Virus record (IMG/VR): IMGVR_UViG_3300009496_000005
Span: 1-64,000 of that record
DNA length: 64,000 nucleotides
DNA from: a virus
Reading direction: 5' to 3' (one strand)
Shown: piece by piece, positions 1,126 to 62,468 of the stretch
Layout: every line of letters begins with the position of its first letter
Position numbering within the stretch: position 1 is the first letter of the stretch
Program-made: the position numbers and the translations under genes
Notes under the pieces: model-generated
The model's input: the letters and a program-made list of their open reading frames with translations, nothing else
What the model was told of the DNA's origin: nothing
Database searches by the model: none

Positions 1126-2685
1126 TCAATGTATTTGAGTATTTCCTGATAAAGGTTGGTCTGTTGCTATAAGGTCAAAGTATATTTCCCAATTACTGTC
1201 TGTAAACATACGTCTAACTCTGTAAGGCACACGGTGTTGTTTAAGCCAATTGTTTGCCCATTCTGTGTCTAATTCCAGTGGATCTGTGCCCATTGCTGTA
1301 AGCATTTCGCTGTTGGCATCGTTTTGATGTTCCCAATCTTGATAATAAAACTCTAATGCTTTCTCACGACCTAGGTGCTTTTTGATCATCACAGCAAAGT
1401 CTTTTAGTGTGGGATACTTGTCTGCACTATATTCCTCACCCAATGCACGGCGTTTTGCATTTACTTCTACTTGAAAACGCAGTGAATTCTTTTGATATTT
1501 AGGTGGTATTGAAGTGTCTATGTCTAATTTCAGTATTTTAAATGCTGATTTTAAGCCTTTGCTCTGTAACCAACTGTTAAGTGTGTCTATGTCTTCATCT
1601 CTGTATGTTCTAGGATTGGGTAATCCTTTTTGTCCAGGTAATATCAGGTCTGCATCACGCAATCCATGACGAACTTTGAAGTTTGAGAAGTATAAATCCC
1701 ACACAACGTCTAGGAATTCTTTGGCAATTTCTTTGTCGTCTGTGTGATCCCATATTAATCCTGCTAATTTATTACTGCTTAGACTGTTCTCTATTTGTGC
1801 TTCTGCTATGTAATCCTCTACTATGTCCTCTGGTTTTACATAGTTTTCTGGAATTAATTTAATTAATTGTGTATCGCTTAATGCTTTTTGAACTTCCTCT
1901 TTATCATAACTGTCTCTGTCCATGGGATCTTGTGAGAAACCAGGATGATCTGTGTATAAATCATCAACGTTGTCTAATTCGAAATCTTTTCGTTGCTGTT
2001 GATCATAGCCTACAGCACGGAATTTACCTCGGGTTTTATCAATTATGGATTTGGTAAACTGTTTACCTGCTGGTGATGTCTGCCTACCAAAGTAAAAAGG
2101 TTTGCCTAAATAACCAATTAATGCAATTAATAACTTACTGGCTATGCCTTTATCTCTGTGATTGGGATCAGTTGCTACTGTATTTCCAATATATCCATCT
2201 CTGTAAGGCCTAACACTCATGAAACCCAGTGGCTTTCTGGAGTTTGCCATAAAGGCTTTATTGCCAATATTCTTTAATTTATCTGTGAATGTTTGTGGAT
2301 CTTCATAAGGATCTATGCTGTGATATATTTGAATATTACCATTCTCATCTTGGAACAGTTCATGCTCTAGGTTAAGTCCAGGTATTTTTCCTAATTTTAT
2401 TGAGGGACCTTGACCTGAATACTTGTTTCCTGTTTGATCTCCTTTATACACACTTTGCACATAACCCATATCATCTGTTTTATAGTCAGGAATATTTATA
2501 GGTGCTTCACTGATACCTGGTTTTTTAAGTGTTAAAATCCATTTACTTGCTATCTGTCTTGCTTCTTGATCACCGAGTGTTTGGAATCTTTTCTTCAGCA
2601 TGTCTGCACTTTGCACTTTAATGAAGGGCATATCACCAGGATCAATGCTGTCTAAATACTGAAAATATTCGCTATAGTCGTTCAT
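1126..2685 (-). CDS. late multidomain protein with internal GNAT-like domain
   Basis: VATDPNHRDKGIASKLL resembles GNAT motif A; start re-assigned to ATG 2685, 5 nt after TAAATA. Confidence 0.55.
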   Translation of the reverse strand: MNDYSEYFQYLDSIDPGDMPFIKVQSADMLKKRFQTLGDQEARQIASKWILTLKKPGISEAPINIPDYKTDDMGYVQSVYKGDQTGNKYSGQGPSIKLGKIPGLNLEHELFQDENGNIQIYHSIDPYEDPQTFTDKLKNIGNKAFMANSRKPLGFMSVRPYRDGYIGNTVATDPNHRDKGIASKLLIALIGYLGKPFYFGRQTSPAGKQFTKSIIDKTRGKFRAVGYDQQQRKDFELDNVDDLYTDHPGFSQDPMDRDSYDKEEVQKALSDTQLIKLIPENYVKPEDIVEDYIAEAQIENSLSSNKLAGLIWDHTDDKEIAKEFLDVVWDLYFSNFKVRHGLRDADLILPGQKGLPNPRTYRDEDIDTLNSWLQSKGLKSAFKILKLDIDTSIPPKYQKNSLRFQVEVNAKRRALGEEYSADKYPTLKDFAVMIKKHLGREKALEFYYQDWEHQNDANSEMLTAMGTDPLELDTEWANNWLKQHRVPYRVRRMFTDSNWEIYFDLIATDQPLSGNTQIH

Positions 2686-2714
2686 ACTAGTATTTATCGT
2701 AAGTTCCATTTCGA

Positions 2715-2742
2715 TTGACAAACCCTGGAAAGATGCTATACT
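2715..2742 (+). promoter_or_regulatory. sigma70-type early promoter
   Basis: TTGACA-N16-TATACT with TG extension. Confidence 0.8.
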
Positions 2743-2772
2743 ATATACATAGTTAGGAAAAAAGGAGTATAA

Positions 2773-2943
2773 ATGGAAATAATTAAATGGATAATTGCAA
2801 TACTGAGCACTTTTTATAAGTGGACAGCAGTAGCCATATTTTTATTAGTTGCTAGTTACAGCACAATAATTATTGTATTTGGTGCATTTATTTGGGGAAT
2901 TTTAGCATTAGTTACTTCACCAAAGAATAAGGAGTTCATTTAA
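2773..2943 (+). CDS. small hydrophobic protein (56 aa, not in ORF track)
   Basis: AAAGGAG SD, MEIIKWIIAILS...KNKEFI; stop overlaps next ATG. Confidence 0.65.
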   Translation: MEIIKWIIAILSTFYKWTAVAIFLLVASYSTIIIVFGAFIWGILALVTSPKNKEFI

Positions 2944-3404: not shown

Positions 3405-3421
3405 ATTTGATAAATAGTTGT

Positions 3422-4237
3422 ATGCAACTAACAGATTTTGATAACATTGTAATTAACGAGTCTAGAAGACCAGAAGTCTTAATGATTATAGAGAACGGAC
3501 AGGTTAACGAAGTGAATTTAAAAAAGATGTTGGCTACAGCAGGCCTAGTAGGCGCATTGTTTACAGCAGGTAATGTTAGTGCATACGACAACAAAGATTT
3601 AATGAAAATGGGATTCAATCCAAGCGAAGCAAATCAATTAGCACAAATGATTGATTCAGATCCTCAGCAAGCCGCAGACATAATAAACAATACAATTGAT
3701 AATATGCGTCAAATAGATGGCCAAGGTGCTAAAAGAGTTTATGGTGGAGATACTTTAACTTTTCCAAAGACTGATGCCGCAAGTGTAGGAACAACTAAGC
3801 CTACAAACTTAGGACCTATGATAGGAACTAGGCAAGACCCACAGAGTTCATCTTATGATGGCAAACCTAGTGGAAGTAAAGACCCATTTGGTTTAAGTCC
3901 TGAGATGAATAGAGGTTCGGGTGATCCTGAGAAACTTAAGAAGAATGCTTTAATACTTAGAGATGTTCTTAATGCAGATCGTTCAGTAGCCAAACATATT
4001 AATAGAGTTTATTATTCATCACAATTAAATAAAATTGTAATTATTCCTAATTATCAAGATTATGGAAGACAAGCAGGTGTAAAAATTAACAGTAAACTAG
4101 GACAAGGTGTATTAGATAATATAGGCCGTCGAATGGTTACTCCAATAATTACAAGAGCAATAGCAAAATTTGGTGTCCCTGGACTTGATATGGACAATGT
4201 TGTTATTGTCGATAGAATGTCGAGAGCACCGAGATAA
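3422..4237 (+). CDS. late hypothetical protein, possible internal virion protein
   Basis: TAAATA-N5-ATG start at 3422; long ORF. Confidence 0.6.
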   Translation: MQLTDFDNIVINESRRPEVLMIIENGQVNEVNLKKMLATAGLVGALFTAGNVSAYDNKDLMKMGFNPSEANQLAQMIDSDPQQAADIINNTIDNMRQIDGQGAKRVYGGDTLTFPKTDAASVGTTKPTNLGPMIGTRQDPQSSSYDGKPSGSKDPFGLSPEMNRGSGDPEKLKKNALILRDVLNADRSVAKHINRVYYSSQLNKIVIIPNYQDYGRQAGVKINSKLGQGVLDNIGRRMVTPIITRAIAKFGVPGLDMDNVVIVDRMSRAPR

Positions 4238-5899: not shown

Positions 5900-5937
5900 A
5901 TAATAAATATAAATGCAGGCTAACTACACACAGGAAC

Positions 5938-7982: not shown

Positions 7983-9122
7983 ATGACAACACGCGGTATA
8001 TACGCAGACAACTTTAATGCAAAATATAGTTACGATGAAAGTAACTACATATCAATCCCAGAACGATTCGCTGAATTTGTTGATGAAAACAAAATGATAG
8101 AAGTCAAGATGGCATGTAGAGAATTTAAACGAAGAAATCCACAGTTTACATGCTTTCAAGATGTTTTAGATGAACTTGTTATGGCTATTCCTTATGTAGC
8201 AGGACAACTTGTAGTTGATTCTACAATGCAAAGAAATCTTTTAATAGACAAATGTATTGATAGAGTAGATAATTTTATTGCTACTAAAGTTATGCCAATA
8301 CAAACTACACCACACCCAGAAGAAGCAGAAAAAGTTCAATGCGGATGGGATGGGCAACATACTGTAATAAAATTATATATTATATGTGTATATGTATTTG
8401 GAGAAACTTGGGAAGACAAACTGATTCCTATTAACATCTACAAAACAACAAATAAATCTCAAATCAGAGAAAACTTTATTGGACTAAATGGTGAGGATAA
8501 AACTCCACTTGATCCGATTGATATTTGGGAACAAATGATTATGGGTGTATGTGTTGATGGTAGCACAAATCCTATATGGGTTGAAGCATACAATAAGTTT
8601 GAAGTAATTAAAAAATGGAAACTTTTTGTAACACATGAAAAGTTTGGCAATGCACACGAAGTTGGTGCTATATCTAGATTGACTGAGATAGAAAAAGCAA
8701 CACCAGAAGATATCAATTACTTTGGTATATACTGGTCAGCCATTAGGCAGAACAGAAGTGTAGCACCCAAAGAGATCTATATGATGCTTACTTGGATTAT
8801 GTTATGTAGGATTGAAGGAATTGCATTAGACGAAGATTATATGCTAGACCTAGCAGATATGAACACCTCGTTCTTTAGAGCAGACTTTTCACCAAGTGGA
8901 CCATTCTGGGCAAAGGCTGAGTTGGCATATGAAGCCTGGCATGAAGAAAAGTATGGAGACTTTGATGATGCTGATAAGCCAGAACCTAGTATGCAAAAGT
9001 TACCATCACATGGTATTCCGTTCTTTAATGCACAAATTAAAAAGACCCTTAACAGGAAAGTGCCTGCCTCAGGTAATATGGCTAACAATGGATTTAAACC
9101 TAGTGAAGATTACTTATGGTAA
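7983..9122 (+). CDS. ParB/Srx-like N-terminal domain protein
   Basis: MQR...WDGQHT motif; AAGGAG SD. Confidence 0.55.
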   Translation: MTTRGIYADNFNAKYSYDESNYISIPERFAEFVDENKMIEVKMACREFKRRNPQFTCFQDVLDELVMAIPYVAGQLVVDSTMQRNLLIDKCIDRVDNFIATKVMPIQTTPHPEEAEKVQCGWDGQHTVIKLYIICVYVFGETWEDKLIPINIYKTTNKSQIRENFIGLNGEDKTPLDPIDIWEQMIMGVCVDGSTNPIWVEAYNKFEVIKKWKLFVTHEKFGNAHEVGAISRLTEIEKATPEDINYFGIYWSAIRQNRSVAPKEIYMMLTWIMLCRIEGIALDEDYMLDLADMNTSFFRADFSPSGPFWAKAELAYEAWHEEKYGDFDDADKPEPSMQKLPSHGIPFFNAQIKKTLNRKVPASGNMANNGFKPSEDYLW

Positions 9123-9556
9123 GAACGTTATTACAGGACCAACGCAAAAACAAAAGGGACGTCCAAAGAATTATAGAGAATAAAATTCTCTGTGATGTTC
9201 CTGGTTGCGACGAACTTATAAGTCTTTACCGTGGTCCTTATTCAGATACCAAATGTAGAGATCATCAACTGCAAGGTATAGAGTATGGTGGTAATGCTAG
9301 TGCTAATAGGACATATACATATCACAAACTAGATCATTGTGAAGATTGCGGCTGGACACCATACACAGATCCTTACTTCAAACTAGAAGAATTCGAATCA
9401 GAGCATGATATGAAACGTTGTCAAGATAAGATGTTGACAGTAGATCATATTAACGGTAATCATGATGATAATCGTGAGGAGAATTGTCAAACTTTATGCG
9501 ATAGATGTCACAAAAAGAAGTCACATATCAATAAAGACTGGTTGACAAGTTCTTAA
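9116..9556 (+). CDS. HNH endonuclease family protein
   Basis: CEDC...LTVDHINGNHDDN...NCQTLCDRCH. Confidence 0.85.
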   Translation: MVRTLLQDQRKNKRDVQRIIENKILCDVPGCDELISLYRGPYSDTKCRDHQLQGIEYGGNASANRTYTYHKLDHCEDCGWTPYTDPYFKLEEFESEHDMKRCQDKMLTVDHINGNHDDNREENCQTLCDRCHKKKSHINKDWLTSS

Positions 9557-9569
9557 AAGGTGCTATACT
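9542..9569 (+). promoter_or_regulatory. sigma70-type early promoter
   Basis: TTGACA-N16-TATACT then ATATGTAT. Confidence 0.8.
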
Positions 9570-9602
9570 ATATGTATATTAAATAAAAAGGTAGGAGTTT
9601 TT

Positions 9603-9923
9603 ATGTATATTTTAGAAAACAAACAAACAGGTGCAATCTTTGGTGCCAAGTCTTTTAACGTCAAATCTCAGTTTGAAACAGAAGCGGCGGCTAAAGCGGC
9701 GGCTACTCGATATGAGAAGAAGTTTACGCCTAATCCATATGGTAGAATGGTATTTAAAAAGTCTGACTACAAAGTTACAGCATATAATGATTATGTTGAG
9801 CCTAATGTAGAGATTACTTTTACTAATCTACATGATGGTAGTGGCCCTTATACAACTACTATTGGTCTTAATGACGTTGGTAGTTGTGTAGACCCTAGAA
9901 CAGAAACATACTGGTCCATGTAG
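9603..9923 (+). CDS. hypothetical early protein
   Basis: AGGAG SD; C-terminal CVDPRTETYWSM. Confidence 0.7.
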   Translation: MYILENKQTGAIFGAKSFNVKSQFETEAAAKAAATRYEKKFTPNPYGRMVFKKSDYKVTAYNDYVEPNVEITFTNLHDGSGPYTTTIGLNDVGSCVDPRTETYWSM

Positions 9924-9948
9924 GATCAGTATGTCGATAAATACTAGC

Positions 9949-10311
9949 ATGAAGTTCTTAGAAATCAAAGAAAGCCAAGAAGCATTACAGGCAAAGAAAG
10001 TCAAGTTGCAACAACTTGAACAGCAACGTGATGCTATGGAATCTGCTTTAACTTCTGCTCGTGAGGCAACTAAACTTATTAAATACGAAGACACAACCAC
10101 ACAGATATTTGTGAAGTTGTCTAGTATTGCTGATCAAGTTGGCATAGAAGAGAAAGAATTAGATTACTATGCCAATCAAGTTCGCGAAGCATCTAACAAT
10201 TTAGAGTCTAAAGTTTATGATATGGAAGAGGTGTTCTCAGAAAAACTGAGAGATCTTAATAATGCATATGATGATCTTGAATACGAAATAGATTACCCAG
10301 AAGACTACTAA
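9949..10311 (+). CDS. late coiled-coil protein
   Basis: TAAATA-N5-ATG at 9949; heptad-rich. Confidence 0.65.
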   Translation: MKFLEIKESQEALQAKKVKLQQLEQQRDAMESALTSAREATKLIKYEDTTTQIFVKLSSIADQVGIEEKELDYYANQVREASNNLESKVYDMEEVFSEKLRDLNNAYDDLEYEIDYPEDY

Positions 10312-10367
10312 ATCATTCAAAACCAGCATTTAAGACTATTTAAATGCACATTTTCACCCAAAACCGG

Positions 10368-10395
10368 TTGACATATCTTAAAAATTTGCTATACT
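10368..10395 (+). promoter_or_regulatory. sigma70-type early promoter
   Basis: AAAACCGG-TTGACA-N16-TATACT-ATATGTATAG. Confidence 0.8.
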
Positions 10396-10430
10396 ATATG
10401 TATAGGTTAAATTAATAAGGGAGTTAAACT

Positions 10431-11015
10431 ATGCAATACAACATTTATCAAATCCAAGTATCAGACGAGATTACAGATTTCGTTAATTCAAACGAAGGCG
10501 GTCATTACGAAGCCGCTAAAAAATATCCATTATATCATGCAAAAATGGAAACAATGCACGCCAGAGGCGATAGTGATAAAATAGATTTCAAACAAGAATA
10601 CTTTTCACACTACACTAAAGTATGTGAAGTAGACGGTAGATACTGTGGACTTACAAAAGGCGATAATATAGATTATACTGTTACCAGCAAAAACGAAGTA
10701 TTTTCAATACTAAATCAATGTTACTTAGATGAAGAAACAGGTGAAGACATAGTGTTTGATAAACATGTTTCTAACTATGTAATGAAAACAATCACTAGAA
10801 AAAATGGTGAGCAAGTAACTTACAGAGATATGCATTCATTATCAGTAGGTGATATTATTGCTGAGCAACCTCAAGTTGGTTATGAGGTAATGGATATAGA
10901 TGATATCATTCCAAACACAAGATATTTTATTGTTGAAAGTTATGGCTTTACAGATATCACAGACATCATTCAAGACATGGATGTTGCTATTAATAGAATC
11001 AAGGAGGCAGTATAA
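10431..11015 (+). CDS. YodL-like domain protein
   Basis: N-terminal YNIYQI and MHSLSVGDII motifs. Confidence 0.5.
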   Translation: MQYNIYQIQVSDEITDFVNSNEGGHYEAAKKYPLYHAKMETMHARGDSDKIDFKQEYFSHYTKVCEVDGRYCGLTKGDNIDYTVTSKNEVFSILNQCYLDEETGEDIVFDKHVSNYVMKTITRKNGEQVTYRDMHSLSVGDIIAEQPQVGYEVMDIDDIIPNTRYFIVESYGFTDITDIIQDMDVAINRIKEAV

Positions 11016-14428: not shown

Positions 14429-16249
14429 TTATGTGATATTATATTTTCCGTATCCGAATCTACGTCTGAAGTATAGTTTTTCTAGATGATCATCTAGTGA
14501 ATGAGATTGGTCGTGTTCAAAGGATACATAAGTTCTACCTTGCCTTACTTGGCCTTCTCGTCCTTTTAGATATTCAAACCAATGTGCATTGTAGCATTTT
14601 TTAAACTGGTAGTCATTTATCTTCTCAGGACTATACATAAAGTCGCATTGTGCTTCTAACAGTTCACTTGGTAAGTCATTGAATGTATCTTTTATAAATG
14701 TTTGTGTTGCTTCCCAATTTTCATGCAACAGCCTATTCAAATACCAAAGCAGAGTATGTCCACTATAAGGACTAGGTTTGCCTTGTGTGTAGTCTCGAAT
14801 AATGCTTTCTACCTTACGCCAAATATCTCCCACTGGTCCTTGATCACTAGCCAAGCAATCAAACAAGCGATCATAAAACTGTCTGTATTGTTCTGTATTA
14901 GATTGATGCGAATACCTAGCAAGTAATTGTGTCCAGCCTCCACAATGAAAGTTAATTATCATTGTTGCATACATCCAACTGTCTATAAAATCTTTGTAAG
15001 GCATTGTCTTTGTGCCAACTACAACTTCTGTTCGTTCTAGTATGCCGTCGTCATCGTCGTCTAAGTCTCCACTAACATATCCTGCTAGTTCTACAGTTTC
15101 AAATTGATATTCTTCTTTATGCTCTGGTGCATTACTTTGTGCATTCTCTAATATTTGATGGAACCATATCTCTATACTGTTATGCTGTCCTATGTCTAAC
15201 ACTTCTGCTAAACCCTTACGCCAACTGTCAGGTGTTTCTAAAGGCAAAGGTAGTATTAGTTCTGTGTATGTTCCCAATCCTTCTGCTTCAATTAAATCAA
15301 ACATATCTTTTAAATGCGACATGTCCATATTCTTTCTTTCTATTGCCTTCAATACATCTGTATCCATGCTTTGAACACTTAGAGTCATTCCTCTATTCAT
15401 GCCATTGCTTGTTAGTTTTTTAACAATTGGTATTACATTTTGTTTAGAGTTCTTATGCCAGTTAGCATTAAATACTTTTGGATAGCCATACTTGTCTTGA
15501 ACCTCTAACATTACATCTACTATCTCTGAATCTCGTTCCGGAAACACACCAAAGTTAGCATCTGCTACAAAGATATATTCTATTTTGTTCTTGCCTAGCC
15601 ATTCTATTTCTTGATATACCTTTGGCACAGGAAACTTTTTAATCTTACTGTAAGTTAAACTACCCCAATCACAAAAACTACATTTAAAAGGACATCCTCT
15701 ATTTGTTTCTAGTGTGGTGCTCCATTTTATATCTGGGTTCTCTTTTATTATATTATCAAAGAATCCATTTATATACGGACTAGGTATATCTAAATCCATA
15801 AGCCTTGTTGCTTCGTATGTTTTTTGTATTGTTCCTGTTTCTTTTAGATCATTAATAAGTTTCTCAAAACTTAATTCTCCTTCACTGACAATCCAACTGT
15901 CTACCCAATTAAATTCTTTTTGCTGTTCTTCTAATCTAAACTCGCTTACTTGTGGTCCGCCAAATACAATAATAGCATCTGGATTGATCTCTTTGATACG
16001 TTTGGATAGTTCTAGGTTGTATTCCCAATTCCACATGTAGCAACTAAACAATACCATGTCGTCATTACGCATACTCTTAGACGCATTGTGAACAGCCTCA
16101 CGCCTAAATACTACTCTATTGACATCAAAGTATCCAGGATTTTTATCTTCAACGAATGTATACACACATGCAATGCTATGTGGTAACCAGTATCCTGAAA
16201 ATATTTTGCCACCCTGTCTAAAGTTTGGCTGGACTAATGATATTTGCAT
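14429..16249 (-). CDS. B12-binding-domain radical SAM protein
   Basis: FSCYMWN, VFGGP, ETNRGCPFKCSFCDWG; start at 16249, 5 nt after TAAATA. Confidence 0.85.
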   Translation of the reverse strand: MQISLVQPNFRQGGKIFSGYWLPHSIACVYTFVEDKNPGYFDVNRVVFRREAVHNASKSMRNDDMVLFSCYMWNWEYNLELSKRIKEINPDAIIVFGGPQVSEFRLEEQQKEFNWVDSWIVSEGELSFEKLINDLKETGTIQKTYEATRLMDLDIPSPYINGFFDNIIKENPDIKWSTTLETNRGCPFKCSFCDWGSLTYSKIKKFPVPKVYQEIEWLGKNKIEYIFVADANFGVFPERDSEIVDVMLEVQDKYGYPKVFNANWHKNSKQNVIPIVKKLTSNGMNRGMTLSVQSMDTDVLKAIERKNMDMSHLKDMFDLIEAEGLGTYTELILPLPLETPDSWRKGLAEVLDIGQHNSIEIWFHQILENAQSNAPEHKEEYQFETVELAGYVSGDLDDDDDGILERTEVVVGTKTMPYKDFIDSWMYATMIINFHCGGWTQLLARYSHQSNTEQYRQFYDRLFDCLASDQGPVGDIWRKVESIIRDYTQGKPSPYSGHTLLWYLNRLLHENWEATQTFIKDTFNDLPSELLEAQCDFMYSPEKINDYQFKKCYNAHWFEYLKGREGQVRQGRTYVSFEHDQSHSLDDHLEKLYFRRRFGYGKYNIT

Positions 16250-16301
16250 ACTACTATTTAACAAAAAGATAAATAGTTGTATAATTTATTAGGAGAGTAT
16301 A

Positions 16302-16667
16302 ATGGCAGATAACAGAGTTTATCCTTCAAATACAGACGAACAAGCAAATGTGGCGGCTACATTGGCAGGTGTTTCTAAGTCAGATCTAGTTAGAGGAACA
16401 CACTTAGGTGCTGAAAATCCAAATGGTGCTCAAGGTTCTAGCCCAACTTCATTTGACGGGTATACACCTATACATTTAATTAATGATCCAAGCGATGGTA
16501 TTAATGATGGCGCAAAGTATGTAACTTATTTCCAAAAAGATGACACAAGTCCAGCAGAATTCTACAAGGCAGTTAATGCAGATGTTTCAACACTAGCACA
16601 ATTAACGTCTGGTGCTGAGTTTGATTTAGTGAGTCCAAAGGAATTAAACCGCAACGGCATCGAATAA
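16302..16667 (+). CDS. late hypothetical protein
   Basis: GATAAATA at 16268 plus AGGAG SD. Confidence 0.7.
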   Translation: MADNRVYPSNTDEQANVAATLAGVSKSDLVRGTHLGAENPNGAQGSSPTSFDGYTPIHLINDPSDGINDGAKYVTYFQKDDTSPAEFYKAVNADVSTLAQLTSGAEFDLVSPKELNRNGIE

Positions 16668-16705
16668 TACTTGACAAATAGTAAATATCATAGTAATATA
16701 TAACT

Positions 16706-17095
16706 ATGGTCAATTCCTTACAACAATTCGTAGATACATTTGAAGCATTAGGCGATCCTAATGCTATCTATGAATACGTCTTAGACTTCGGTTCAGATAC
16801 CAACGAAACTATAGAAAGAATACAAGATAACTTTGTTTATGGTTGTCAGAGTGAAGTCTGGGTCGATGGTATAGAAGAAGCATTAGGTTGGAAGTTTGAA
16901 CTAGTAAGTGATGCTTACATTGTAAACGGTATAGGTAATATCATGTGTGACTGTATGAAGGGATTGAGCACTCCTGAGATAGAAGCATTACAATGGGAAG
17001 ATTTTGCACCACTAGGCAGATACTTTAGTCAACAAAGAAAACAAGGAATGCAAGCCATACTTAATAAATGTAAAAAAATAACACGAGGCGAATAA
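16706..17095 (+). CDS. sufE: SufE-family sulfur acceptor
   Basis: [12 protein letters not shown] with catalytic Cys; SDAYIVNG; SQQRKQG. Confidence 0.85.
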
Positions 17096-21246: not shown

Positions 21247-21720
21247 ATGGATAAAAGTCTAGCGACAGAACAGCAAGGTATTGAATTACTGTATAGAGGT
21301 GAGAACATTGAAGATGTTCCTTTTATAGATGCAGAGCAATACAACGAGTTTGCAAAAGAATTAGACCTGCCCTCGATTACTGATACAGCAGATTGGAGTC
21401 TAGACTTTAACATACCGCAACACTACAAAGACTTAGACGTAGAGGAATATGTTAGAAGGTTAGTTCCTAACGTAAAGGACCAGACTGATAAACTGGCTTA
21501 CCTTAATAGAGTAGAAGAGGAACTAGCACTTTACAAAGCCAGGAACTTATATCCTATGTTACAATTAATGATATATATAATTGATACCTTTAAAAAGAAT
21601 AATCTTGTTAGAGGCGTTGGCCGAGGTAGTAGTGTTGCAAGTTATGTGCTCTATTTAATCGGTGTGCATAAGGTTAATAGTTATAAATATAAGTTAAACA
21701 TTAGAGAGTTTTTAAAATAA
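21247..21720 (+). CDS. DNA polymerase III alpha (DnaE)-like fragment
   Basis: RVEEEL...GVGRGSSVASYVLYLIGVHKVN matches DnaE GxGRGS..GS motif; only 157 aa. Confidence 0.8.
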   Translation: MDKSLATEQQGIELLYRGENIEDVPFIDAEQYNEFAKELDLPSITDTADWSLDFNIPQHYKDLDVEEYVRRLVPNVKDQTDKLAYLNRVEEELALYKARNLYPMLQLMIYIIDTFKKNNLVRGVGRGSSVASYVLYLIGVHKVNSYKYKLNIREFLK

Positions 21721-23750: not shown

Positions 23751-24915
23751 GTTTATTTTTGAAATAAAATCTACTACAAGTCCTTTAAGATCAACAAAGA
23801 CTGTTTCGTTCTTTAACTTTATGGAAAGGGATAGAACAGGCGACGGGTTTAAATTTCCTTTTACTTATGAATTACATTATACTAATGCTTTTGAAAGCAA
23901 TGATGTAGATCCTGATGCAACTAATGTATTTGTTGTTCCTATGAACATAGATTATATTAGACAATTAAACTTTGATGTGCTGTATGATTTACAAGACAAA
24001 CACTCAAACGTAATATTACTTGCAGACTACAGTAACGAAAGTAACTTCCCAGCAAACTTTGGAACTAGAAACAATATAGAAAATAACTTTGAAACAGAAA
24101 GATTTATTTGCACAATGTTAAGTTTACATAATGGAGAGGAAATACCAGAGCCCAAGTTTAAAAAAATATTTCCTATTTGGATGTTTGCTACAGGAGTATT
24201 AAATGAGATACTTGATAGACGTAACGAAAAACATCTACATAACATTCCTCCTTTTACTTGGCCTGGCAAAGAAACATTCAAACAGTTCTTCTTCCCCAAT
24301 AGGCTAGGAAGAGTGTGTAGGTTAGACTTAATTGTTAAAGCACACAAAGAAGGTTTGCTAGACAAGTGCGAGTGGACACTGATGATTCCTAGCACTGAAG
24401 GTTATCTAGAGGAATACAATCCGCACCATGAGTATTTTAAACTGTTTGGCACAGAACATAAAGGCATAGATCATACAGAGTTTGAATACAAATGGAGTCA
24501 TCCAGCCTCAGAGTTTAATCAAGGTGGGCCACACGAAGCCTTTCCAATGGCAGTATTAGAACGAACACTAGCAGTTATAATATCAGATACATACAATGAT
24601 AACAACTTAATCAGTGATGGCTCAGAAAAGATATTAAAGCCTTTGATGTATGGCATGCCTGTTTTTTATAATGGCAGGACAGGAGTCATTAACAAACTAA
24701 AGGAGTTTGGTTTTTGGTTTCCAGGCAGTGACTACAACAATATCTTAGATGCAGAAGAACGCAGTAAGCAAATGATAGAGGACTGCTTAAACTTTGAGAC
24801 TGTGATATCTAAAGAAACAGCCGAACATGTTAAAGAAAACAAGCAACTTATGTTTGATCGTAACACACATTATAAATTAAGCAAAGATTTATTTGATTAT
24901 ATACTTGACTTTTAA
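23737..24915 (+). CDS. hypothetical protein, possibly glycosyltransferase-related
   Basis: SEKILKPLMYGMP...LKEFGF motif; follows ugd. Confidence 0.5.
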   Translation: MKKVKFIFEIKSTTSPLRSTKTVSFFNFMERDRTGDGFKFPFTYELHYTNAFESNDVDPDATNVFVVPMNIDYIRQLNFDVLYDLQDKHSNVILLADYSNESNFPANFGTRNNIENNFETERFICTMLSLHNGEEIPEPKFKKIFPIWMFATGVLNEILDRRNEKHLHNIPPFTWPGKETFKQFFFPNRLGRVCRLDLIVKAHKEGLLDKCEWTLMIPSTEGYLEEYNPHHEYFKLFGTEHKGIDHTEFEYKWSHPASEFNQGGPHEAFPMAVLERTLAVIISDTYNDNNLISDGSEKILKPLMYGMPVFYNGRTGVINKLKEFGFWFPGSDYNNILDAEERSKQMIEDCLNFETVISKETAEHVKENKQLMFDRNTHYKLSKDLFDYILDF

Positions 24916-24939
24916 TATAAAGTATCGTATAATGTAATT

Positions 24940-25110
24940 ATGTATTGTAGTGAATGTAATAAGTTATTAATTGCGAGTGAAATAAAATATTTTACTCCTG
25001 ACCACAATAATGTTTTCTGTGATGCATATTGTAGTAATGCCTGGTATAGCAAAACTTTTGAAAAACTAGATGCTAAAACAGACCAAACGGAGAATAACAA
25101 TGATGAGTAA
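24940..25110 (+). CDS. small zinc-finger protein (56 aa, not in ORF track)
   Basis: MYCSEC...FCDAYC; ATG 6 nt after TATAAT (24928-24933). Confidence 0.6.
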   Translation: MYCSECNKLLIASEIKYFTPDHNNVFCDAYCSNAWYSKTFEKLDAKTDQTENNNDE

Positions 25111-26298: not shown

Positions 26299-26315
26299 AT
26301 TAGTTAAATAGTAAT

Positions 26316-27764
26316 ATGAAATTTGTTTTGCTAACAGACTTAGGCAAGAAACCTACACGATCAGGCTTACTGTTTAATAATAGTAGAAGTTCTGGCAGTC
26401 TGCATATAGTAAGCGAAGCAAGAAACTTTGGTGCAGAAGCAACCGGCATAGACTATTGGCGTAGTTGGCCTTATGAATTACTTAAAGAATCCATACTATC
26501 ATATTTTAATGATGACTCTGAGCCTTGGTTAGCCTTAAGTGGAAGTATAGACGGCAGTAGCACAGATGACTTTAAAATACTTGTAGATGATATAAAGAAA
26601 GAATTACCTCAACTTAAAGTTATGCTAGGTGGATACAGAGTTCCAGTTGGTGAAAAAGATTGGGTAGATATTGCATTCATTGGTAGAAGCACAAACTTGT
26701 TTAGGAGATGGTTAAACAAAGAGCCACTTGATCAATACATTATGTCTACAGAACCTTTAACATTAAAAAATCCATGGGGTGAAATACTAGAAGAGCCAGT
26801 AAGTCCTATTGTTGTTCCAGAAGATTTTATATCAGACAGAGAAGTTTTAGTAGTAGAAACAGCATTAGGTTGTAAGTTTGATTGTAGTTTTTGTGGCTAT
26901 GACTTTAGAAACAACAAAAAGCCTCATTTAATAGATGAGGAAGTATTATATAACAGTTTAAAAACAGCACATGATATGTTTGGGGTTGACCATTTCTTCT
27001 TTGCTGATGATACAATTAACGAAGTAGATGTTAAATTAGAACTTATAGGCAGAGTAGTAGAGCAATTAGACTTTAATCCTTCATTCATGGCATTTGCTAG
27101 ATTAGATGTGGTAGGTGCTAAAACACATCAAATTGATCTAATGCAAAAAGCAAACATAGATACATTATTTTTTGGCATAGAAAGTTTTAATCCTAATGTT
27201 ACAAAGATGATTCGTAAAGGAGGCAAGCCAGATAAGTTATTAGACACATTGAGATTATTTAAAAAAGAAATGCCAGATGCATTTACATACGCAAACTTTA
27301 TTATAGGTCTTACTGGCGACACAGAAGAAAGCATTTGGGAACACGGACATAAACTTATAGAAGAACAACTTGTAACCAGTGCAGGCTGTAATGCTCTAAG
27401 AATTTATCAAAACTTAGATAATCCAGATGTAGAAAGTAATATAGATAAAGACCCAGAGAAATTTGGTTACGAACTTACAGGACAAGATAGAGAATGGCCG
27501 GAACTTGGATATACATCTAAAACTTGGAAGAACGATTGGATAGATGTTAAACAAGCAGAAGAACTTGCAAAAAAATATGATAAGGTAATGGCAGACGGAT
27601 TAGAATCTGTGTTTACAGCACACGAGATATTAGGTATAGCAGGACTATTTAAAGATAGATTACCTTGGAAAAATTATAATAATCTTTTACCTATAGCGAA
27701 CAAAGGGCAAACTAAAATGCTCAATAAATATATAAAGAATAAAAGCATGTTTTTAAAAAGGTAA
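26316..27764 (+). CDS. radical SAM protein
   Basis: ETALGCKFDCSFC, FADDTIN, FFGIES. Confidence 0.85.
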   Translation: MKFVLLTDLGKKPTRSGLLFNNSRSSGSLHIVSEARNFGAEATGIDYWRSWPYELLKESILSYFNDDSEPWLALSGSIDGSSTDDFKILVDDIKKELPQLKVMLGGYRVPVGEKDWVDIAFIGRSTNLFRRWLNKEPLDQYIMSTEPLTLKNPWGEILEEPVSPIVVPEDFISDREVLVVETALGCKFDCSFCGYDFRNNKKPHLIDEEVLYNSLKTAHDMFGVDHFFFADDTINEVDVKLELIGRVVEQLDFNPSFMAFARLDVVGAKTHQIDLMQKANIDTLFFGIESFNPNVTKMIRKGGKPDKLLDTLRLFKKEMPDAFTYANFIIGLTGDTEESIWEHGHKLIEEQLVTSAGCNALRIYQNLDNPDVESNIDKDPEKFGYELTGQDREWPELGYTSKTWKNDWIDVKQAEELAKKYDKVMADGLESVFTAHEILGIAGLFKDRLPWKNYNNLLPIANKGQTKMLNKYIKNKSMFLKR

Positions 27765-27772
27765 ATAAGAGT

Positions 27773-28027
27773 ATGTGGACTAAAATAAAAAACTTTTTCT
27801 ATACAGCATGGTATGAAGAATACGAACTTACTGTTTGGTTTGACAATGGAGTAACTGCAGATCCAGAAGGAACTGAGACTCCTAACCCTAAAAGCAAAAA
27901 GGTCTTTAGACTAAAAGCAATTAGTAAAAGGCAACCTACTCACATCAAAGGTAAGGAACTTGACGGCAAAGATTTTGAAATTAAAACTGTTAAGCCGTTT
28001 GATTTTATGCTAAGAAAGATATATTAG
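27773..28027 (+). CDS. late hypothetical protein
   Basis: TAAATA-N5-ATG. Confidence 0.7.
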   Translation: MWTKIKNFFYTAWYEEYELTVWFDNGVTADPEGTETPNPKSKKVFRLKAISKRQPTHIKGKELDGKDFEIKTVKPFDFMLRKIY

Positions 28028-28828: not shown

Positions 28829-28986
28829 CGATTGTTTTATCTGTGTTCCAACTTTTTGTATGGTTGATTATCATATTACATAAAATATTTACTAAAAGTA
28901 AGAGGACCAAAAACAACGCAGTTTATAAGTCAATGTTGATTTAATATGGTAAATGGTTTTGATAAATAGTTGTAACGGAGATTTAT

Positions 28987-29547
28987 ATGACTATATCTAC
29001 AAAGATGTTAAACGATAGTATAAAGAAGATTAGTGACACTAATAGTCTTTTAGATATGCTATGCGAATTTGAAAAAGTAATAGACGATGCAGATGTATAT
29101 GCTTATAAGAATTGGGAAAAGGGAGAAATACTCGAAGGTCCTAACTTAGGTAGACACTTTGTTGACGTTAAACTATTATACAAAGGCAAAGAAATGCCAG
29201 ATCCAGAAGGAGCAAAAAGGTTACTTGCCCTAGAATGCCAAGTAAAATTTGATAAAGATACTTTGTTATCCCCTAGAAAAGTAATGACATTTGACGATGT
29301 GGATATAGATGTAAGACCAGATGGCAGTCAAAGATATAAAGCAAAAACAACTTCAGAACCATGTTGGGTAGTAAGTATTAGAATGCCAAGAAGGTATGTA
29401 GATGAATTTAATGCAGACGTTATTACTGTAGATGAAGACAACTATGTTGATACAGAAAAAGCACAAGATCAAGGCACAGCAAATGATATAGCAACTGGCA
29501 ATGCAGGAATACCAATGGCTCCCCCAATGGGCGGATTAGGAATATAA
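28987..29547 (+). CDS. conserved late hypothetical protein
   Basis: GATAAATA 28961 plus GGAG SD. Confidence 0.75.
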   Translation: MTISTKMLNDSIKKISDTNSLLDMLCEFEKVIDDADVYAYKNWEKGEILEGPNLGRHFVDVKLLYKGKEMPDPEGAKRLLALECQVKFDKDTLLSPRKVMTFDDVDIDVRPDGSQRYKAKTTSEPCWVVSIRMPRRYVDEFNADVITVDEDNYVDTEKAQDQGTANDIATGNAGIPMAPPMGGLGI

Positions 29548-31424: not shown

Positions 31425-31462
31425 CACTTGACATTTAGCATTTAACCCTGTATAATACATTT

Positions 31463-32275
31463 ATGGATTACTATGAAACACTTGGGGTTAATCACACCAC
31501 AACCCCAAAGGAAATAAAAAAAGCATACCGCAAACTTGCTAGTAAACATCATCCTGATAAAGGTGGTGATGCTGAACAATTCAAAAAGATCCAAGAAGCA
31601 TACGACACTCTAAGTGACCCACAAAAGAAACAACAATACGATAATCCAGATCCGTTTGCAAACTTTCGAGGCGGTAATCCATTTGGCACAGGCAACTTTC
31701 AAGATATATTTACAGATATATTTGGCCAACGCAGGCAACCTCAACGCAATCCGGATGGCATATTTGATATGGAAATAACTTTACAAGATGCTTTTCTAGG
31801 TAAAGAAATGACATTAAGCACACCAGAAGGTAGTGTTAATATAACTATACCCGCAGGTGTTAGACCAGGCACCAAGTTTAGGCTAGCCGGCAAGGCTGGT
31901 AGTAGGATTCCTCACTTGCCACCTGGCGACTTAATTGTTAGACTACATATTCAAAGTCCACGTGAATGGGGTAGAGAAGGAGATGACTTATTCATTAGAG
32001 CAGAAGTAAATGCTATAGAGGCCATGCGAGGTAGTTCTATACGAATTATACATTTAGATGGCAAACAATATGATGTTACTATACCAGCAGGAACACAACC
32101 TGATGCTAAGATCAGAATGGCAGGATTAGGTATGACTAATCCAGGCAATGGTATAGCAGGCAATCTAATTATAATAGTTGCTATCCATGTGCCCACAATC
32201 ACAGATAATAATGACATAGAACTTTTAAATAAAATTAATAACAGAGAAAAGGACAACCGTAGGAGTTACAAATAA
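31463..32275 (+). CDS. dnaJ: DnaJ/CbpA-like chaperone (no zinc finger)
   Basis: J domain HHPDKGG; C-terminal GDL substrate-binding domains. Confidence 0.92.
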
Positions 32276-32278
32276 TAA

Positions 32279-35664: not shown

Positions 35665-35699
35665 AGATTGATAAATAGTTATATAACTAGGGAATCAAT

Positions 35700-45291: not shown

Positions 45292-45864
45292 TTAATCTTT
45301 TGGTATAGCCATACAATTCATATGTAAGCATATTGTTTCTACAGCACTATTGTTCGGGGTCATACCCCATGGGATGTGAGAAGGAAAACAACAATACTTC
45401 CAAATCTTTGGTTTAATATAGTTAGTTCCTGCTTGTATTTTTATGGGCGAAGAGTGGAGTCGTAGTCCAAAGTTTTCTTGATATACCATAGAACCCTTAT
45501 TGGTTGTTTGCAACCACATGATGCATGTATACCATTTTGTTCTATCTACATGAACAGGATATGTATGTCCAGGATTAATACTAAATAGACTTGGCTCAGT
45601 TAGTTGTATCTGTGCCTTATTTGTATTAGGTATTGCTTTGCGTATCTCATCAACAAAGAGATTGCCTATAAGCATTTGTAGATTCTTTACTACATCTACC
45701 TGTGGCATGTCTTTATTAGTCATCCAACCAAAGTTAGTGTCTAGACAATTACCAGAGTCTTTTGCTTCTAGAATACCTTTTCTAATCTTTGTTCCTACAG
45801 ATCGCTCTATAGGTATCTCTCCCTCAATGCATACATCAGGGAATAGGTTATATGCTTTTGCCAT
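45292..45864 (-). CDS. 2OG-Fe(II) oxygenase-like (TIGR02466-like, possibly degenerate)
   Basis: [19 protein letters not shown], final N/C strand; TAAATA-N5-ATG. Confidence 0.55.
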
Positions 45865-45939
45865 ACAAGTATTTATTCTTTTAGGTTGACATTGTGTCTA
45901 TAAGAAGGTATAATAAATTATAGGCTAAAAGGTATTAAC

Positions 45940-47668: not shown

Positions 47669-47748
47669 ATGGGTTCCCCCCTAGTGTTCAATATCCTCCC
47701 ACATTGAACACTTTAGAGACCCCCTAGTTCTTAGGGGGTTTCGCTTTT
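47669..47748 (+). ncRNA. candidate late small RNA with anti-SD loop
   Basis: TAAATA 47658-63; 10-bp stem with ATCCTCCCAC loop; terminator hairpin 47716-47742. Confidence 0.4.
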
Positions 47749-47822: not shown

Positions 47823-48173
47823 ATGATAAAGGAAAGAAACACAACTGTATTAGCCTCAGACTATCAAAGCACTGAGCAACTTCAAAAATTTATTAAACAT
47901 TGCACTGGTGCAAAAATGACTCCTGTTAAAGGTAAGCATGATGCATTTTGGGTTAGTGGTGATAAACGTGGTGACTACTACGAGCAGAAATATTATAAAA
48001 TTGTATTTGGTCCAGTTACCCAAGTTTCATATAGTAACGGTAGAACTGAAAAATCAGGTTATGGTTTTGATATTCAAACTGTAGGCGACCTTAATGGTTG
48101 GCAGTTAATGGGCGAGTATCGTAAAATGATTAAAGAAGCAATGGCTGAATTTAAACAGAAGGAGACTGCATAA
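47823..48173 (+). CDS. hypothetical early protein
   Basis: ORF after promoter. Confidence 0.65.
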   Translation: MIKERNTTVLASDYQSTEQLQKFIKHCTGAKMTPVKGKHDAFWVSGDKRGDYYEQKYYKIVFGPVTQVSYSNGRTEKSGYGFDIQTVGDLNGWQLMGEYRKMIKEAMAEFKQKETA

Positions 48174-59602: not shown

Positions 59603-59779
59603 ATGGAAACACATTTAAAACTTAAAGCACTCTTCGAAGAGTATATTGCAGAACAGGATAACTTTGAAATCAAATGCGTTAAAGCATCAGCCACAAGAGC
59701 AAGAAAGGCTCTTATGGAGATTTCGAAACTTACTAAAGTTCGTAGACAAGAAATCCAAGACAGAAAGAACTCAATGTAA
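59603..59779 (+). CDS. histone H1-like (Hc1-family) small protein (58 aa, not in ORF track)
   Basis: AAGGAG SD; KASATRARKALMEISKL...R motif. Confidence 0.65.
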   Translation: METHLKLKALFEEYIAEQDNFEIKCVKASATRARKALMEISKLTKVRRQEIQDRKNSM

Positions 59780-59931
59780 TGGAAGAGAAATCAAACACAT
59801 CAAGTGAACCTAAAAAGATTAGCAAAGACGAAGCAGAAAAAATGTCAGACTTTGCACAGAATCTAGATGACCCAATTACTCATGTAGTTGACTATGGTGA
59901 TATAGGACTTGACAAAAACAGTAAAAAGTAG
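59779..59931 (+). CDS. small hypothetical protein (50 aa)
   Basis: TAATG-coupled ORF. Confidence 0.4.
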   Translation: MEEKSNTSSEPKKISKDEAEKMSDFAQNLDDPITHVVDYGDIGLDKNSKK

Positions 59932-59943
59932 TATAATTTTAAT

Positions 59944-60990
59944 ATGAAAGTCTATATCGTAGAGATAGAGCCTGTAGAAACTAGATACACGGCTGAGTGG
60001 AAACAACATTTGCCTAGGCAAATGGAATCTGCTGGGTTAGATGTAACTGTTATACATGGTCCTGATGATGCTCCGGATGATACTACTCCAGGAGCATTCC
60101 TCAATTTCAGTGGCACTAACTACTGGAAGAGCGGACAAATGATGCAAATTGCTAGTTTGTTTGCTGAGGGCAAGATCAACGATGGTGACTACTTTTTATA
60201 TACTGATGCATGGAATCCTACTGTTATACAATTAAAGTATATGGCTGAATTACTAGGCGTCAATATAAAAATAGGTGGAATGTGGCATGCAGGATCATAT
60301 GACCCTGCAGACTTCTTAGGCAGACTTATAGGTGATAAACCTTGGGTTAGAAATGCTGAAAGAAGTATGTATGATTGTTTTGATCATAACTTTTTTGCAA
60401 CACAATTTCATATCGATATGTTTATGGATAACTTTCCAGAAGCAGACACTAATAAACTTTATAGGGTAGGTTGGCCAATGGAATACATGGAAAACTTACT
60501 TTATGATTATGGAAGTGAAGCAAACAAATATGATATGATATTGTTCCCACATAGACTTGCACCTGAAAAGCAAGTCGACATATTTAAAGATTTATCAGAC
60601 AGTATGCCTGATGTAGAGTTTGTTGTTTGTCAAGAACAGACACTAACAAAGGATGAGTATCATATGCTACTAAGCAGAAGTAAAATTGTGTTTAGTGCAA
60701 ATACTCAAGAGACATTAGGTATAAGTTGCTACGAAGGAGCATTAGTAAATGCTTCTCCGTTAGTGCCTGATAGATTAAGTTACACAGAAATGTATGACGA
60801 AGAATATAAGTATCCAAGTGAATGGACGGAGAACTTCGAAACCTACTTGGAACACAAAGATAAACTTATGGCAAAAATAAGGCAAATACTTGGCAAGAGC
60901 AATGAATTACAAAATGAAAAATTGGCATCGCATTTAAGTGAGCACTTTTTTAATGGTAATGCATTGTATAATATAATAGGAAATCAATAA
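59944..60990 (+). CDS. GT-B fold glycosyltransferase
   Basis: FPHRLAPEK, QETLGISCYEG, PLVP. Confidence 0.8.
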   Translation: MKVYIVEIEPVETRYTAEWKQHLPRQMESAGLDVTVIHGPDDAPDDTTPGAFLNFSGTNYWKSGQMMQIASLFAEGKINDGDYFLYTDAWNPTVIQLKYMAELLGVNIKIGGMWHAGSYDPADFLGRLIGDKPWVRNAERSMYDCFDHNFFATQFHIDMFMDNFPEADTNKLYRVGWPMEYMENLLYDYGSEANKYDMILFPHRLAPEKQVDIFKDLSDSMPDVEFVVCQEQTLTKDEYHMLLSRSKIVFSANTQETLGISCYEGALVNASPLVPDRLSYTEMYDEEYKYPSEWTENFETYLEHKDKLMAKIRQILGKSNELQNEKLASHLSEHFFNGNALYNIIGNQ

Positions 60991-61952
60991 TGAGCAACGA
61001 GCAGAAAACAATTTTAGTTACAGGAGGCAGTGGATTTATTGGAAGTGTGACATGTAAGTTTCTAGTAGACTCCGGCTACAATGTAATTAATATCGATAGA
61101 ACAAAAAGACAACAAGAAGGTGTGCATCAATATCCATTTGATATAGACAATCATCAACTAGAAGGTGTTATTGCACTTACAAAACCAGATGCAGTTATAC
61201 ATTTGGCCGCTGACCATAGTGTGCCACTAAGTATAGAAGCACCTGCAGACACATACTATAACAACGTTGCAAACTCAATTGCATTGTTAAAGCATTGTGT
61301 TAGGAATAATGTAAAACATTTCGTCTTTAGTAGTTCAAGTTCTGTGTATGGCAATAGTGATTTCGTTTTAAATACAGAAACAGACCCAACCAACCCTTTA
61401 ACACCATACGGTAAAAGTAAACAAATGATAGAGGAAGTCCTTAAAGACTTTTCTAATGCTTATGAACTATCATTTGCAAGTTTGAGATACTTTAATGCCG
61501 CAGGTAGTTATGAAGGTTTAGGTTACACATTAGATCCAAAGAGTCATTTACTTCCAATAGTTGTAGACAAAGCACTGAAAGGTGAGCCGTTTACTATTAA
61601 TGGTGAGGACTATGATACTAAAGATGGCACATGTGAAAGAGACTACACTCATGTAGCCGATATTGCATCTGCTCATGTATCTGCACTTAACTATCTATTC
61701 GATGGTGGTGGTGGTGGAGTGTTTAACATAGGTGGTGGTAGTAGTAGAAGTATTAAAGACGTAATTGCAGAAGTTGAAAAGCAATTAGATTTAACAATAG
61801 ATACTAAAGTTGGACCAAGAAGAGAAGGAGACCCAGACAAAACATCAGCCAATATTCAAAAGGCATGGGAAGAGTTTGGTTGGGAATCAACTCTTGATTT
61901 AGAAGATATAGTTAGAGATGAAATTGCTTATCAAAAAAGCCTACAAAAATAA
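60990..61952 (+). CDS. galE: UDP-glucose 4-epimerase
   Basis: TGGSGFIG, YGKSK, LRYFNAAG, DGTCERDYTHV. Confidence 0.9.
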   Translation: MSNEQKTILVTGGSGFIGSVTCKFLVDSGYNVINIDRTKRQQEGVHQYPFDIDNHQLEGVIALTKPDAVIHLAADHSVPLSIEAPADTYYNNVANSIALLKHCVRNNVKHFVFSSSSSVYGNSDFVLNTETDPTNPLTPYGKSKQMIEEVLKDFSNAYELSFASLRYFNAAGSYEGLGYTLDPKSHLLPIVVDKALKGEPFTINGEDYDTKDGTCERDYTHVADIASAHVSALNYLFDGGGGGVFNIGGGSSRSIKDVIAEVEKQLDLTIDTKVGPRREGDPDKTSANIQKAWEEFGWESTLDLEDIVRDEIAYQKSLQK

Positions 61953-61988
61953 CTTGACAAATAGGTCTAAAGGAGATATACTATAAGC

Positions 61989-62468
61989 ATGGATAAATTA
62001 TTTTACTCATACAATAACATGGTATCTGACTGTAGACATATAGTGCGAGAAATGGCGCATGAAAGTTACAAGCCTGAAGTTATAATTGGGCCTGGCAGAG
62101 GCGCATATCCTTTTGGTGTTATGCTTAGTCATTACTTTGAAGTTCCGTTTGAAGCATTCCGTTGGCAAACAAGAGACGGTGCAATCGAAGATTCCGAGAC
62201 CTTAAGACACATTTTGTCTAAATACAATGGTAAAACAGTATTAGTTGTAGATGATATTAACGATACTGGCACAACACTAATAGGTATAGATGAAGTTATT
62301 AAAGGATCACAAAGAGTCGATATGGTTACAGCACATCAGGATATAACTTACTCTACACTATTTGATAAAGAGTCTAGTAAGTTTTCTAATGTTAGATTTA
62401 CAGCAAATAATGTTTTACCAGATGAAGAAAAATGGATAGTATTCCCTTACGAGGAGTGGTGGAAATGA
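61989..62468 (+). CDS. purine (xanthine/guanine-type) phosphoribosyltransferase
   Basis: GRG, VLVVDDINDTGTT PRPP motif, WIVFPYE. Confidence 0.85.
   Translation: MDKLFYSYNNMVSDCRHIVREMAHESYKPEVIIGPGRGAYPFGVMLSHYFEVPFEAFRWQTRDGAIEDSETLRHILSKYNGKTVLVVDDINDTGTTLIGIDEVIKGSQRVDMVTAHQDITYSTLFDKESSKFSNVRFTANNVLPDEEKWIVFPYEEWWK

Follow-up and report, generated by a model that had tools for sequence, protein, structure and literature searches.

The stretch of DNA considered here, hereafter the window, comprises positions 1 to 64,000 of the IMG/VR virus record IMGVR_UViG_3300009496_000005, i.e. the first 64 kb of a 77,148-bp contig with 36 % G+C, and its subject is a set of genes whose ATG start codon lies only 5–7 nt behind a promoter-like element. 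Genes are tightly packed and the + strand predominates. CheckV rates the record as 21 % complete, which implies a genome of several hundred kilobases. The family-B DNA polymerase (PolB) of the contig shares 41–46 % identity with its counterparts in the T4-core jumbo phages Phosso, Atu_ph07 and the 121Q group, and 72 % with that of G006, an uncultured relative of 340 kb that is 91 % complete. The stretch is present in DNA runs of several marine plankton and seawater studies, which supports a marine origin; the window belongs to a marine giant phage of the T4-core type. A megablast search of its tail-fibre region against cultured phages gave no match. A good Shine-Dalgarno (SD) sequence precedes 66 of the 121 predicted genes of the contig.

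An earlier reading of this DNA, made from its letters only, had proposed that about 13 genes of the window are translated from leaderless mRNAs, seven of them starting 5 nt behind the hexamer TAAATA of a T4-type late box and six starting 6–7 nt behind the -10 box of a sigma70-type promoter. The sites are as follows (N5 stands for the 5 nt between TAAATA and the ATG; gaps are those to the upstream gene).

Late-type boxes
2683..2696, - strand: late box 2691-2696, N5, ATG 2685 of a 519-aa GNAT-domain protein (gene 1126-2685), the first gene of a divergent unit
3411..3424, + strand: late box TTTGA-TAAATA, N5, ATG 3422 of a 271-aa protein (3422-4237); no SD
9938..9951, + strand: late box, N5, ATG 9949 of a 120-aa protein; ambiguous
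16247..16275, both strands: back-to-back divergent late boxes 9 nt apart, one fused to an ATG and one SD-led
16255-16260, - strand: the first of these boxes, N5, ATG 16249 of a 606-aa B12-binding radical SAM protein (gene 14429-16249); leaderless type
16270-16275, + strand: the second of these boxes, 26 nt before an SD-led gene starting at 16302
26305..26318, + strand: late box, N5, ATG 26316 of a 482-aa radical SAM protein (26316-27764); no SD; gap of 17 nt
27762..27775, + strand: late box, N5, ATG 27773 of an 84-aa protein; gap of 8 nt; ambiguous
45862..45875, - strand: late box, N5, ATG 45864 of a 190-aa 2OG-Fe(II) oxygenase-like protein (45292-45864), the first gene of a divergent unit
28963..28989, + strand: for comparison, TTTGA-TAAATA-GTTGT-A with an 18-nt spacer and an SD before the virion structural gene 28987; similar SD-led late boxes lie at 35672 (gene 35700), 36134 (tail-fibre-like gene 36178), 41682 (gene 41760) and 48951 (gene 48980)

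Early sigma70-type promoters
16671..16708, + strand: TTGACA-17-TAATAT-6-ATG 16706 of SufE, 129 aa
21212..21249, + strand: TTGACA-16-TATAAT-7-ATG 21247 of a 157-aa protein; gap of 8 nt
24905..24942, + strand: TTGACT-17-TATAAT-6-ATG 24940 of a 56-aa Cys-rich protein
31428..31465, + strand: TTGACA-17-TATAAT-6-ATG 31463 of DnaJ, 270 aa
59909..59946, + strand: TTGACA-17-TATAAT-6-ATG 59944 of a 348-aa protein; gap of 12 nt
61954..61991, + strand: TTGACA-17-TATACT-6-ATG 61989 of a phosphoribosyltransferase, 159 aa; ambiguous

Ten of the 13 fused sites are firm, and 9949, 27773 and 61989 are ambiguous. At 9949, an in-frame ATG with AGGA 5 nt upstream lies at 9931. The TAA of the 27773 box is at the same time the stop codon of the upstream gene, so that translational coupling is possible there, while at 61989 a GGAGA ending 13 nt upstream would permit an SD-led reading of longer transcripts. 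On this contig, the products of leaderless-type genes are enzymes, chaperones and small proteins, and an SD is retained by the obvious high-copy structural genes.

Promoters, start codons and the distance between them

Over the whole contig, the histogram of TAAATA-to-ATG distances is enriched at N5 alone, distances of 0–4 and 6–25 nt being at chance apart from a small shoulder at 17–18 nt that corresponds to SD-led genes. The window contains 10 copies of TAAATA-N5-ATG where 2.58 are expected (a count reached in 0 of 100 shuffles), and the 77,148-bp contig contains 11 where 2.85 +/- 1.65 are expected (reached in 0 of 300 dinucleotide shuffles), so that the excess over shuffled sequence expected by the earlier reading is found, and all seven late-class ATGs that it had named are confirmed among the matches. 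The remaining matches are 47669, 33354 and 47823 in the window and 69564 in the rest of the contig. That at 33354 lies inside the Clp gene and is probably due to chance, and the one at 47823 opens a gene that has an SD of its own and follows a sigma70-type promoter; together with 69564, they fit the roughly 2.9 matches expected by chance (boxes 33343, 47812 and 69553).

Alignment of 18 late boxes yields the extended motif (T)TGA-TAAATA-nTnGT-purine, in which no -35 position is conserved. The earlier claim that the sixth base after TAAATA is an A at five SD-led boxes (16270, 28963, 35672, 41682 and 48951) also holds, and three further SD-led boxes have a G there (36134, 69821 and 75385). The extended motif recurs 17–72 nt upstream of SD-led virion structural and tail-fibre-like genes, among them 28987, 35700 and 36178, and the boxes at 5904, 7259 and 48951 directly follow terminators. 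A motif that lacks a -35, precedes SD-led structural genes and stands directly after terminators behaves as a T4-type late promoter. About seven of the 18 boxes abut an ATG.

The early class gives a parallel picture. All six sites were confirmed as near-consensus TTGACA-N16/17-TATAAT promoters followed after 6–7 nt by an ATG that opens a real gene. These six and about 17 SD-led early promoters, all predicted from sequence, show 0–2 mismatches in total to TTGACA, a 16–18 nt spacer and TATAAT, which puts about a quarter of the strong early promoters (six of about 23) at leaderless spacing. Their distance to the first ORF start is bimodal: it is either 6–7 nt (six genes, no SD) or 18–50 nt, where most genes have an SD (duplex energy -4.3 to -10.2 kcal/mol), and no case falls between 8 and 17 nt.

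The start codon is ATG at all 13 sites, and the duplex with the anti-SD has an energy of -1.3 kcal/mol or weaker at 11 of them, the exceptions being 27773 (-3.9 kcal/mol) and 61989 (-8.4 kcal/mol, but 13 nt from the ATG). In DnaJ, the J domain begins at residue 2 and there is no in-frame start codon upstream; in SufE, the alignment begins at residue 10; and the 606-aa radical SAM protein has eight homologues with the N-terminus M-K-(Q/K)-I-L-L-V-Q-P-N-F, aligned with the M-Q-I-S-L-V-Q-P-N-F that is read from ATG 16249. By these alignments the ATG is verified as the genuine start of the three genes, those of the other sites being taken from ORF structure. As to the four starts of the ORF track that had been corrected at the outset, 16249 is thus upheld, 2685 and 3422 are plausible (at the latter, a TTG at 3407 falls inside the box region), and 9949 is uncertain on account of ATG 9931.

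Are promoter and ATG more than neighbours? Taking both promoter classes together, the distance to the start is either 5–7 nt without an SD or at least 17 nt, almost always with one. Twelve credible genes lie 12 nt or more from the upstream gene and have practically no SD (a duplex weaker than about -2.5 kcal/mol); ten of these have a promoter at leaderless spacing, the exceptions being 5938 and 23821, the start of the latter being uncertain. A pyrimidine at -1 and an A at +1, as RNA polymerase is known to prefer where it starts, are present at 13 of 13 sites, compared with a -1 pyrimidine at 29 of 63 SD-led starts (46 %; Fisher P = 1.7e-4). Finally, 2685(-), 16249(-) and 45864(-) come first in divergent units, where no same-strand neighbour upstream could provide coupling and where a leader would find no room. 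These four independent features indicate that the arrangement is more than adjacency.

The -10 hexamer of sigma70 promoters occupies positions -12 to -7, and the T4 late box positions -13 to -6. A distance of roughly one helical turn between that late box and the transcription start is given in PMC2988020. Both geometries place the predicted +1 on the A of the ATGs listed above, and the promoter-fused units probably give leaderless mRNAs that would be translated via their 5'-terminal AUG. The initial proposal of about 13 leaderless genes is supported by this geometry, by the absence of SDs, by the -1/+1 signature and by conservation; it is weakened at the three ambiguous sites and by the fact that the late sigma factor gp55 is found in a relative only.

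Conservation and exchange of the layout among relatives

Orthologues of DnaJ (35–58 % identity) were retrieved from 12 IMG/VR loci (L001-L012), and a TTGAC -35 with a TATAAT-like -10 is preserved at every one of them. The distance from the -10 box to the ATG is 6 nt at seven of these loci, 5 nt at two, 7 nt at two and 8 nt at one, and the letters of the spacer have diverged. One of the contigs concerned (that of L003; G010, 49 kb) is classed as a provirus by IMG/VR, and any host flanks on it could identify the host of the clade.

Two relatives whose contigs were analysed over their full length, G1 (110 kb) and G2 (64 kb), show an excess of TAAATA at N5, with 8 and 6 cases respectively, and G1 has another 8 at N6. 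Sigma70-type promoters lie exactly 6 nt before seven ORFs of 73–263 aa in G1 and 6–7 nt before four ORFs in G2. The leaderless layout is kept in at least one relative for SufE and the 157-aa gene, which resembles DNA polymerase III alpha (both in G1), for the phosphoribosyltransferase at 61989 (in G2) and for DnaJ. Orthologues of 27773 have the late box at N6 in G2 and at N7 in G1, the G1 orthologue of 59944 has no such promoter, and a search of viral contigs for orthologues of 26316, 2685(-) and 3422 returned nothing usable.

The layout is also exchanged for the ordinary one. A Clp-like ATPase gene and a 142-aa structural-type gene are SD-led here and preceded by TAAATA-gtagt-ATG in both G1 and G2; conversely, the leaderless-type layout seen here at the radical SAM gene and at the 56-aa gene gives way to an SD-led one in a relative (G2 in the case of the 56-aa gene). 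Judging from these orthologues, leaderless-type and SD-led architectures interconvert. The DnaJ/Clp-like ATPase pair itself is wired differently in the three phages (window 31463-34465; G1 67317-70300; G2 7987-10940). Here, the Clp-like gene has an SD and begins 3 nt after the DnaJ stop codon, and it is therefore predicted to share the early leaderless-type transcript, while in the relatives its ATG is fused to a separate late box.

In the nearly complete relative G006, TAAATA-N5-ATG occurs 25 times against 7 for a reversed-pattern control, with ORFs of at least 100 codons at 16 of the 20 matches examined, and sigma70-type promoters at N6 number 4 against 0 in the control. G006 encodes a gp55-like late sigma factor (phrog_234, E = 7.4e-24); none was found in G1, G2 and three smaller relatives. 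N5 enrichment over controls is absent from T4, 121Q, Atu_ph07 and Phosso. It is present in the cultured SAR11 phage HTVC008M (NC_020484), which has 14 matches against 4 in the control. In the 26-kb stretch of that genome that was inspected, eight of eight N5 matches are annotated CDS starts, including those of head-closure, baseplate and tape-measure genes. Structural genes with the fused layout are seen both in the relatives and in HTVC008M. This myophage shares with the contig the N5 layout and the same GTAnT flavour of the spacer, but it is a distant relative (PolB 31–33 % identical) with a genome of 147 kb.

Weighing the readings and a possible mechanism

Several observations weigh against leaderless translation of these genes. 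The minimum free energy of the first 40 nt is alike in candidates and SD-led genes (P = 0.44), i.e. the candidates are no less structured. About 35 other genes of the contig lack a good SD, and most of them overlap or abut an upstream gene; translation of these genes depends on overlap or coupling, so that ribosomes on this DNA do initiate without an SD. The spacings of 5–8 nt in relatives imply that some transcripts would carry one or two extra nucleotides or start at a shifted position. The 21 %-complete contig itself yields no gp55 match. Leaderless translation is known to be inefficient in E. coli. Moreover, a run search returned five RNA libraries with small shares of the stretch, four of which gave short, sparse contigs of low depth that carry neither start nor strand information and may stem from DNA carry-over; two of these contigs cross the 16706 promoter, so that read-through RNA, or DNA, exists there.

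The main rival builds on such observations. It holds that the genes are expressed from read-through transcripts by SD-independent initiation, either through S1 acting on A/U-rich RNA or through termination-reinitiation, and that the promoters abut the ATGs because of genome compaction and mainly serve genes further downstream. The overlapped or tightly coupled SD-poor genes, the RNA-library contigs spanning the 16706 promoter and the short gaps at 21247 (8 nt), 27773 (8 nt) and 59944 (12 nt) are in its favour, and it does explain some of the tightly spaced cases. However, compaction does not explain why the ATG should fall exactly on the predicted +1, nor why all 13 sites have a pyrimidine at -1. 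The N5–N8 spacing of the DnaJ orthologues is kept despite changed spacer letters, the three minus-strand sites 2685, 16249 and 45864 have no same-strand gene upstream from which transcripts could read through, and promoter-proximal genes with a longer leader mostly carry an SD. As a general account we consider read-through unlikely.

Still less probable, to the point of being very doubtful, is that TAAATA is an A/U-rich ribosome-binding element that replaces the SD and no promoter at all. The hexamer does lie at the usual position of an SD, and the 27762 and 69553 boxes overlap upstream stop codons, but a translation signal would have no reason to recur, in its extended form, 17–72 nt upstream of SD-led structural genes or directly after the terminators at 5904, 7259 and 48951. 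The motif agrees with the T4-type late box, gp55 is encoded by a close relative, and the parallel sigma70-type class would be left unexplained. Chance pairing of an A/T-rich hexamer with ATG in a genome of 36 % G+C accounts for two or three random-looking matches (33343, 47812, 69553) and is otherwise effectively refuted, since none of 300 shuffles reaches the count, N5 alone is enriched, long ORFs begin at the matches and G1, G2, G006 and HTVC008M show the enrichment as well.

If the fused units do give leaderless mRNAs, expression could proceed as follows. The early promoters, TTGACA-N16/17-TATAAT, would be read by the host sigma70 holoenzyme, and late (G/T)(A/T)TAAATA boxes without a -35 would be read, presumably, by a gp55-like sigma factor such as that present in relatives. 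Roughly one in four of the early units and one in three of the late units are built such that the predicted +1 falls on the A of the ATG, so that the mRNA from the fused promoter would have neither a 5' leader nor an SD. A ribosome with initiator tRNA would then bind the 5'-terminal AUG, the known leaderless route (Brock et al. 2008, as cited in PMC5312081). The same AUG, internal and without an SD in a read-through transcript, would be poorly read, and translation of the gene would thereby be tied to the firing of its own promoter. The position of the transcription start, the leaderless translation and this gating are what we infer; independence from an SD-based shut-off, also raised in the sequence-only reading, is speculation.

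Known systems and further features of the contig

The cI mRNA that phage lambda makes from PRM is the classic leaderless mRNA of a sigma70 promoter. There as here, the -35 and -10 elements of a host sigma70 promoter put +1 on the A of an AUG start codon and no SD is present. However, the arrangement in lambda, a temperate phage, is confined to one regulatory gene, while the present case concerns six of about 23 early promoters of a lytic-type giant phage and genes that include those of DnaJ, SufE and a phosphoribosyltransferase. Deinococcus-Thermus and the archaea are rich in leaderless mRNAs, and the transcripts of Thermus phages are mostly leaderless. Mycobacterium is another such lineage (PMC4633059). 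A -10-type element at a fixed 5–7 nt before the start of many genes without an SD is common to these lineages and the contig; the latter differs from them in its mixture of SD-led and leaderless-type genes, in having a phage-specific late promoter as well, in its canonical TTGACA/TATAAT elements and in its marine origin.

Late transcription in T4 depends on an 8-bp TATAAATA box that is read by gp55 together with gp33 and the gp45 clamp (PMC2988020), and an ATAAATA variant along with gp55 is known from the Rak2-like jumbo phages CBB and GAP32 (PMC5259590). The boxes described here are likewise TATAAATA-like elements of the -10 type without a -35, they lie upstream of virion structural genes, and the relative G006 has a gp55-like sigma factor. 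They differ from those of T4 in their first two positions (G/T and A/T here, T and A in T4) and in that T4 late mRNAs have leaders with an SD. A functional analogy is offered by the T4 genes e, soc and 49, whose translation depends on which promoter has made the mRNA (PMC3014915). In both cases, as far as can be inferred, translation would be poor on read-through and good from the gene's own late promoter; in T4, however, a hairpin hides the SD and the AUG in the long transcript, whereas the contrast proposed here is between a 5'-terminal and an internal SD-less AUG. In other giant phages, differential RNA sequencing of phiKZ detected no leaderless transcripts (PMC8244752) and the 5' UTRs of AR9 range from 26 to 491 nt (PMC5312081).

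In the searchable literature on leaderless mRNAs in combination with late promoters, jumbo phages, T4-like phages, cyanophages or SAR11, no description of this layout was found. Each component is well known; what appears to be new, as far as that literature goes, is the systematic union of a leaderless layout with T4-type late promoters, paralleled by fused host-type early promoters, in a T4-core giant phage.

A wider and more tentative idea, which we regard as possible but would not bet on, is that in a large group of aquatic T4-core phages, including this clade and HTVC008M, promoter-fused ATGs constitute a routine second mode of expression that is interchangeable with the SD-led one, gated by the gene's own promoter (the AUG being silent in read-through RNA) and exempt from SD-directed control such as RegB-like cleavage or changes of the anti-SD. 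It would amount to a general, undescribed layer of regulation in phages of oligotrophic marine bacteria. To our knowledge, leaderless initiation is regarded as marginal outside the actinobacteria, Deinococcus-Thermus and the archaea. If the 5' ends are as predicted, a sizeable share of the genes of abundant marine phages would bypass SD-dependent initiation. Annotation would be affected, because gene callers choose an upstream TTG or ATG or miss such starts; the temporal programmes of phages would have to be reread with translation tied to promoter choice; and the finding would bear on the translation to be expected in the hosts, possibly SAR11-like bacteria. The question can be put to a direct test, as the layout is also present in a cultured phage-host pair, HTVC008M and Ca. 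P. ubique.

A few further features of the contig deserve mention. The 157-aa protein encoded at 21247-21720, whose promoter lies almost wholly within the 3' end of the upstream ORF, is free-standing and matches only a piece of the NTPase domain of bacterial DNA polymerase III alpha (PF07733; phrog_11127). The two large radical SAM proteins, 14429-16249 (-, with the B12-binding domain) and 26316-27764 (+), are both encoded behind late-type boxes in a phage.

A conserved -10 and initial transcribed sequence, TATACT-ATATGTATAG-(G/T)TTA, recurs in SD-led early promoters, namely those with the -35 at 2715, 9542, 10368, 46539 and 47756 and, in the remainder of the contig, at 71924 and 76707. This suggests a common 5'-UTR element, and it gives rise to a spurious ATG peak at N2 in spacing histograms. 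The late boxes at 5904, 7259 and 14067 (+) have TAAATA-yAA-ATG in common, the ATG being at N3 and out of frame with the gene; long leaders follow all three, and two of them stand directly after terminators. Lastly, the N5 match at 47669 was rejected as a gene start, the ORF having only 12 aa. The segment 47658-47748 (+), in which this late box, its N5 spacer and the ATG lie between a hairpin and the next sigma70 promoter, resembles a unit for a short, non-coding late RNA more than a gene start.

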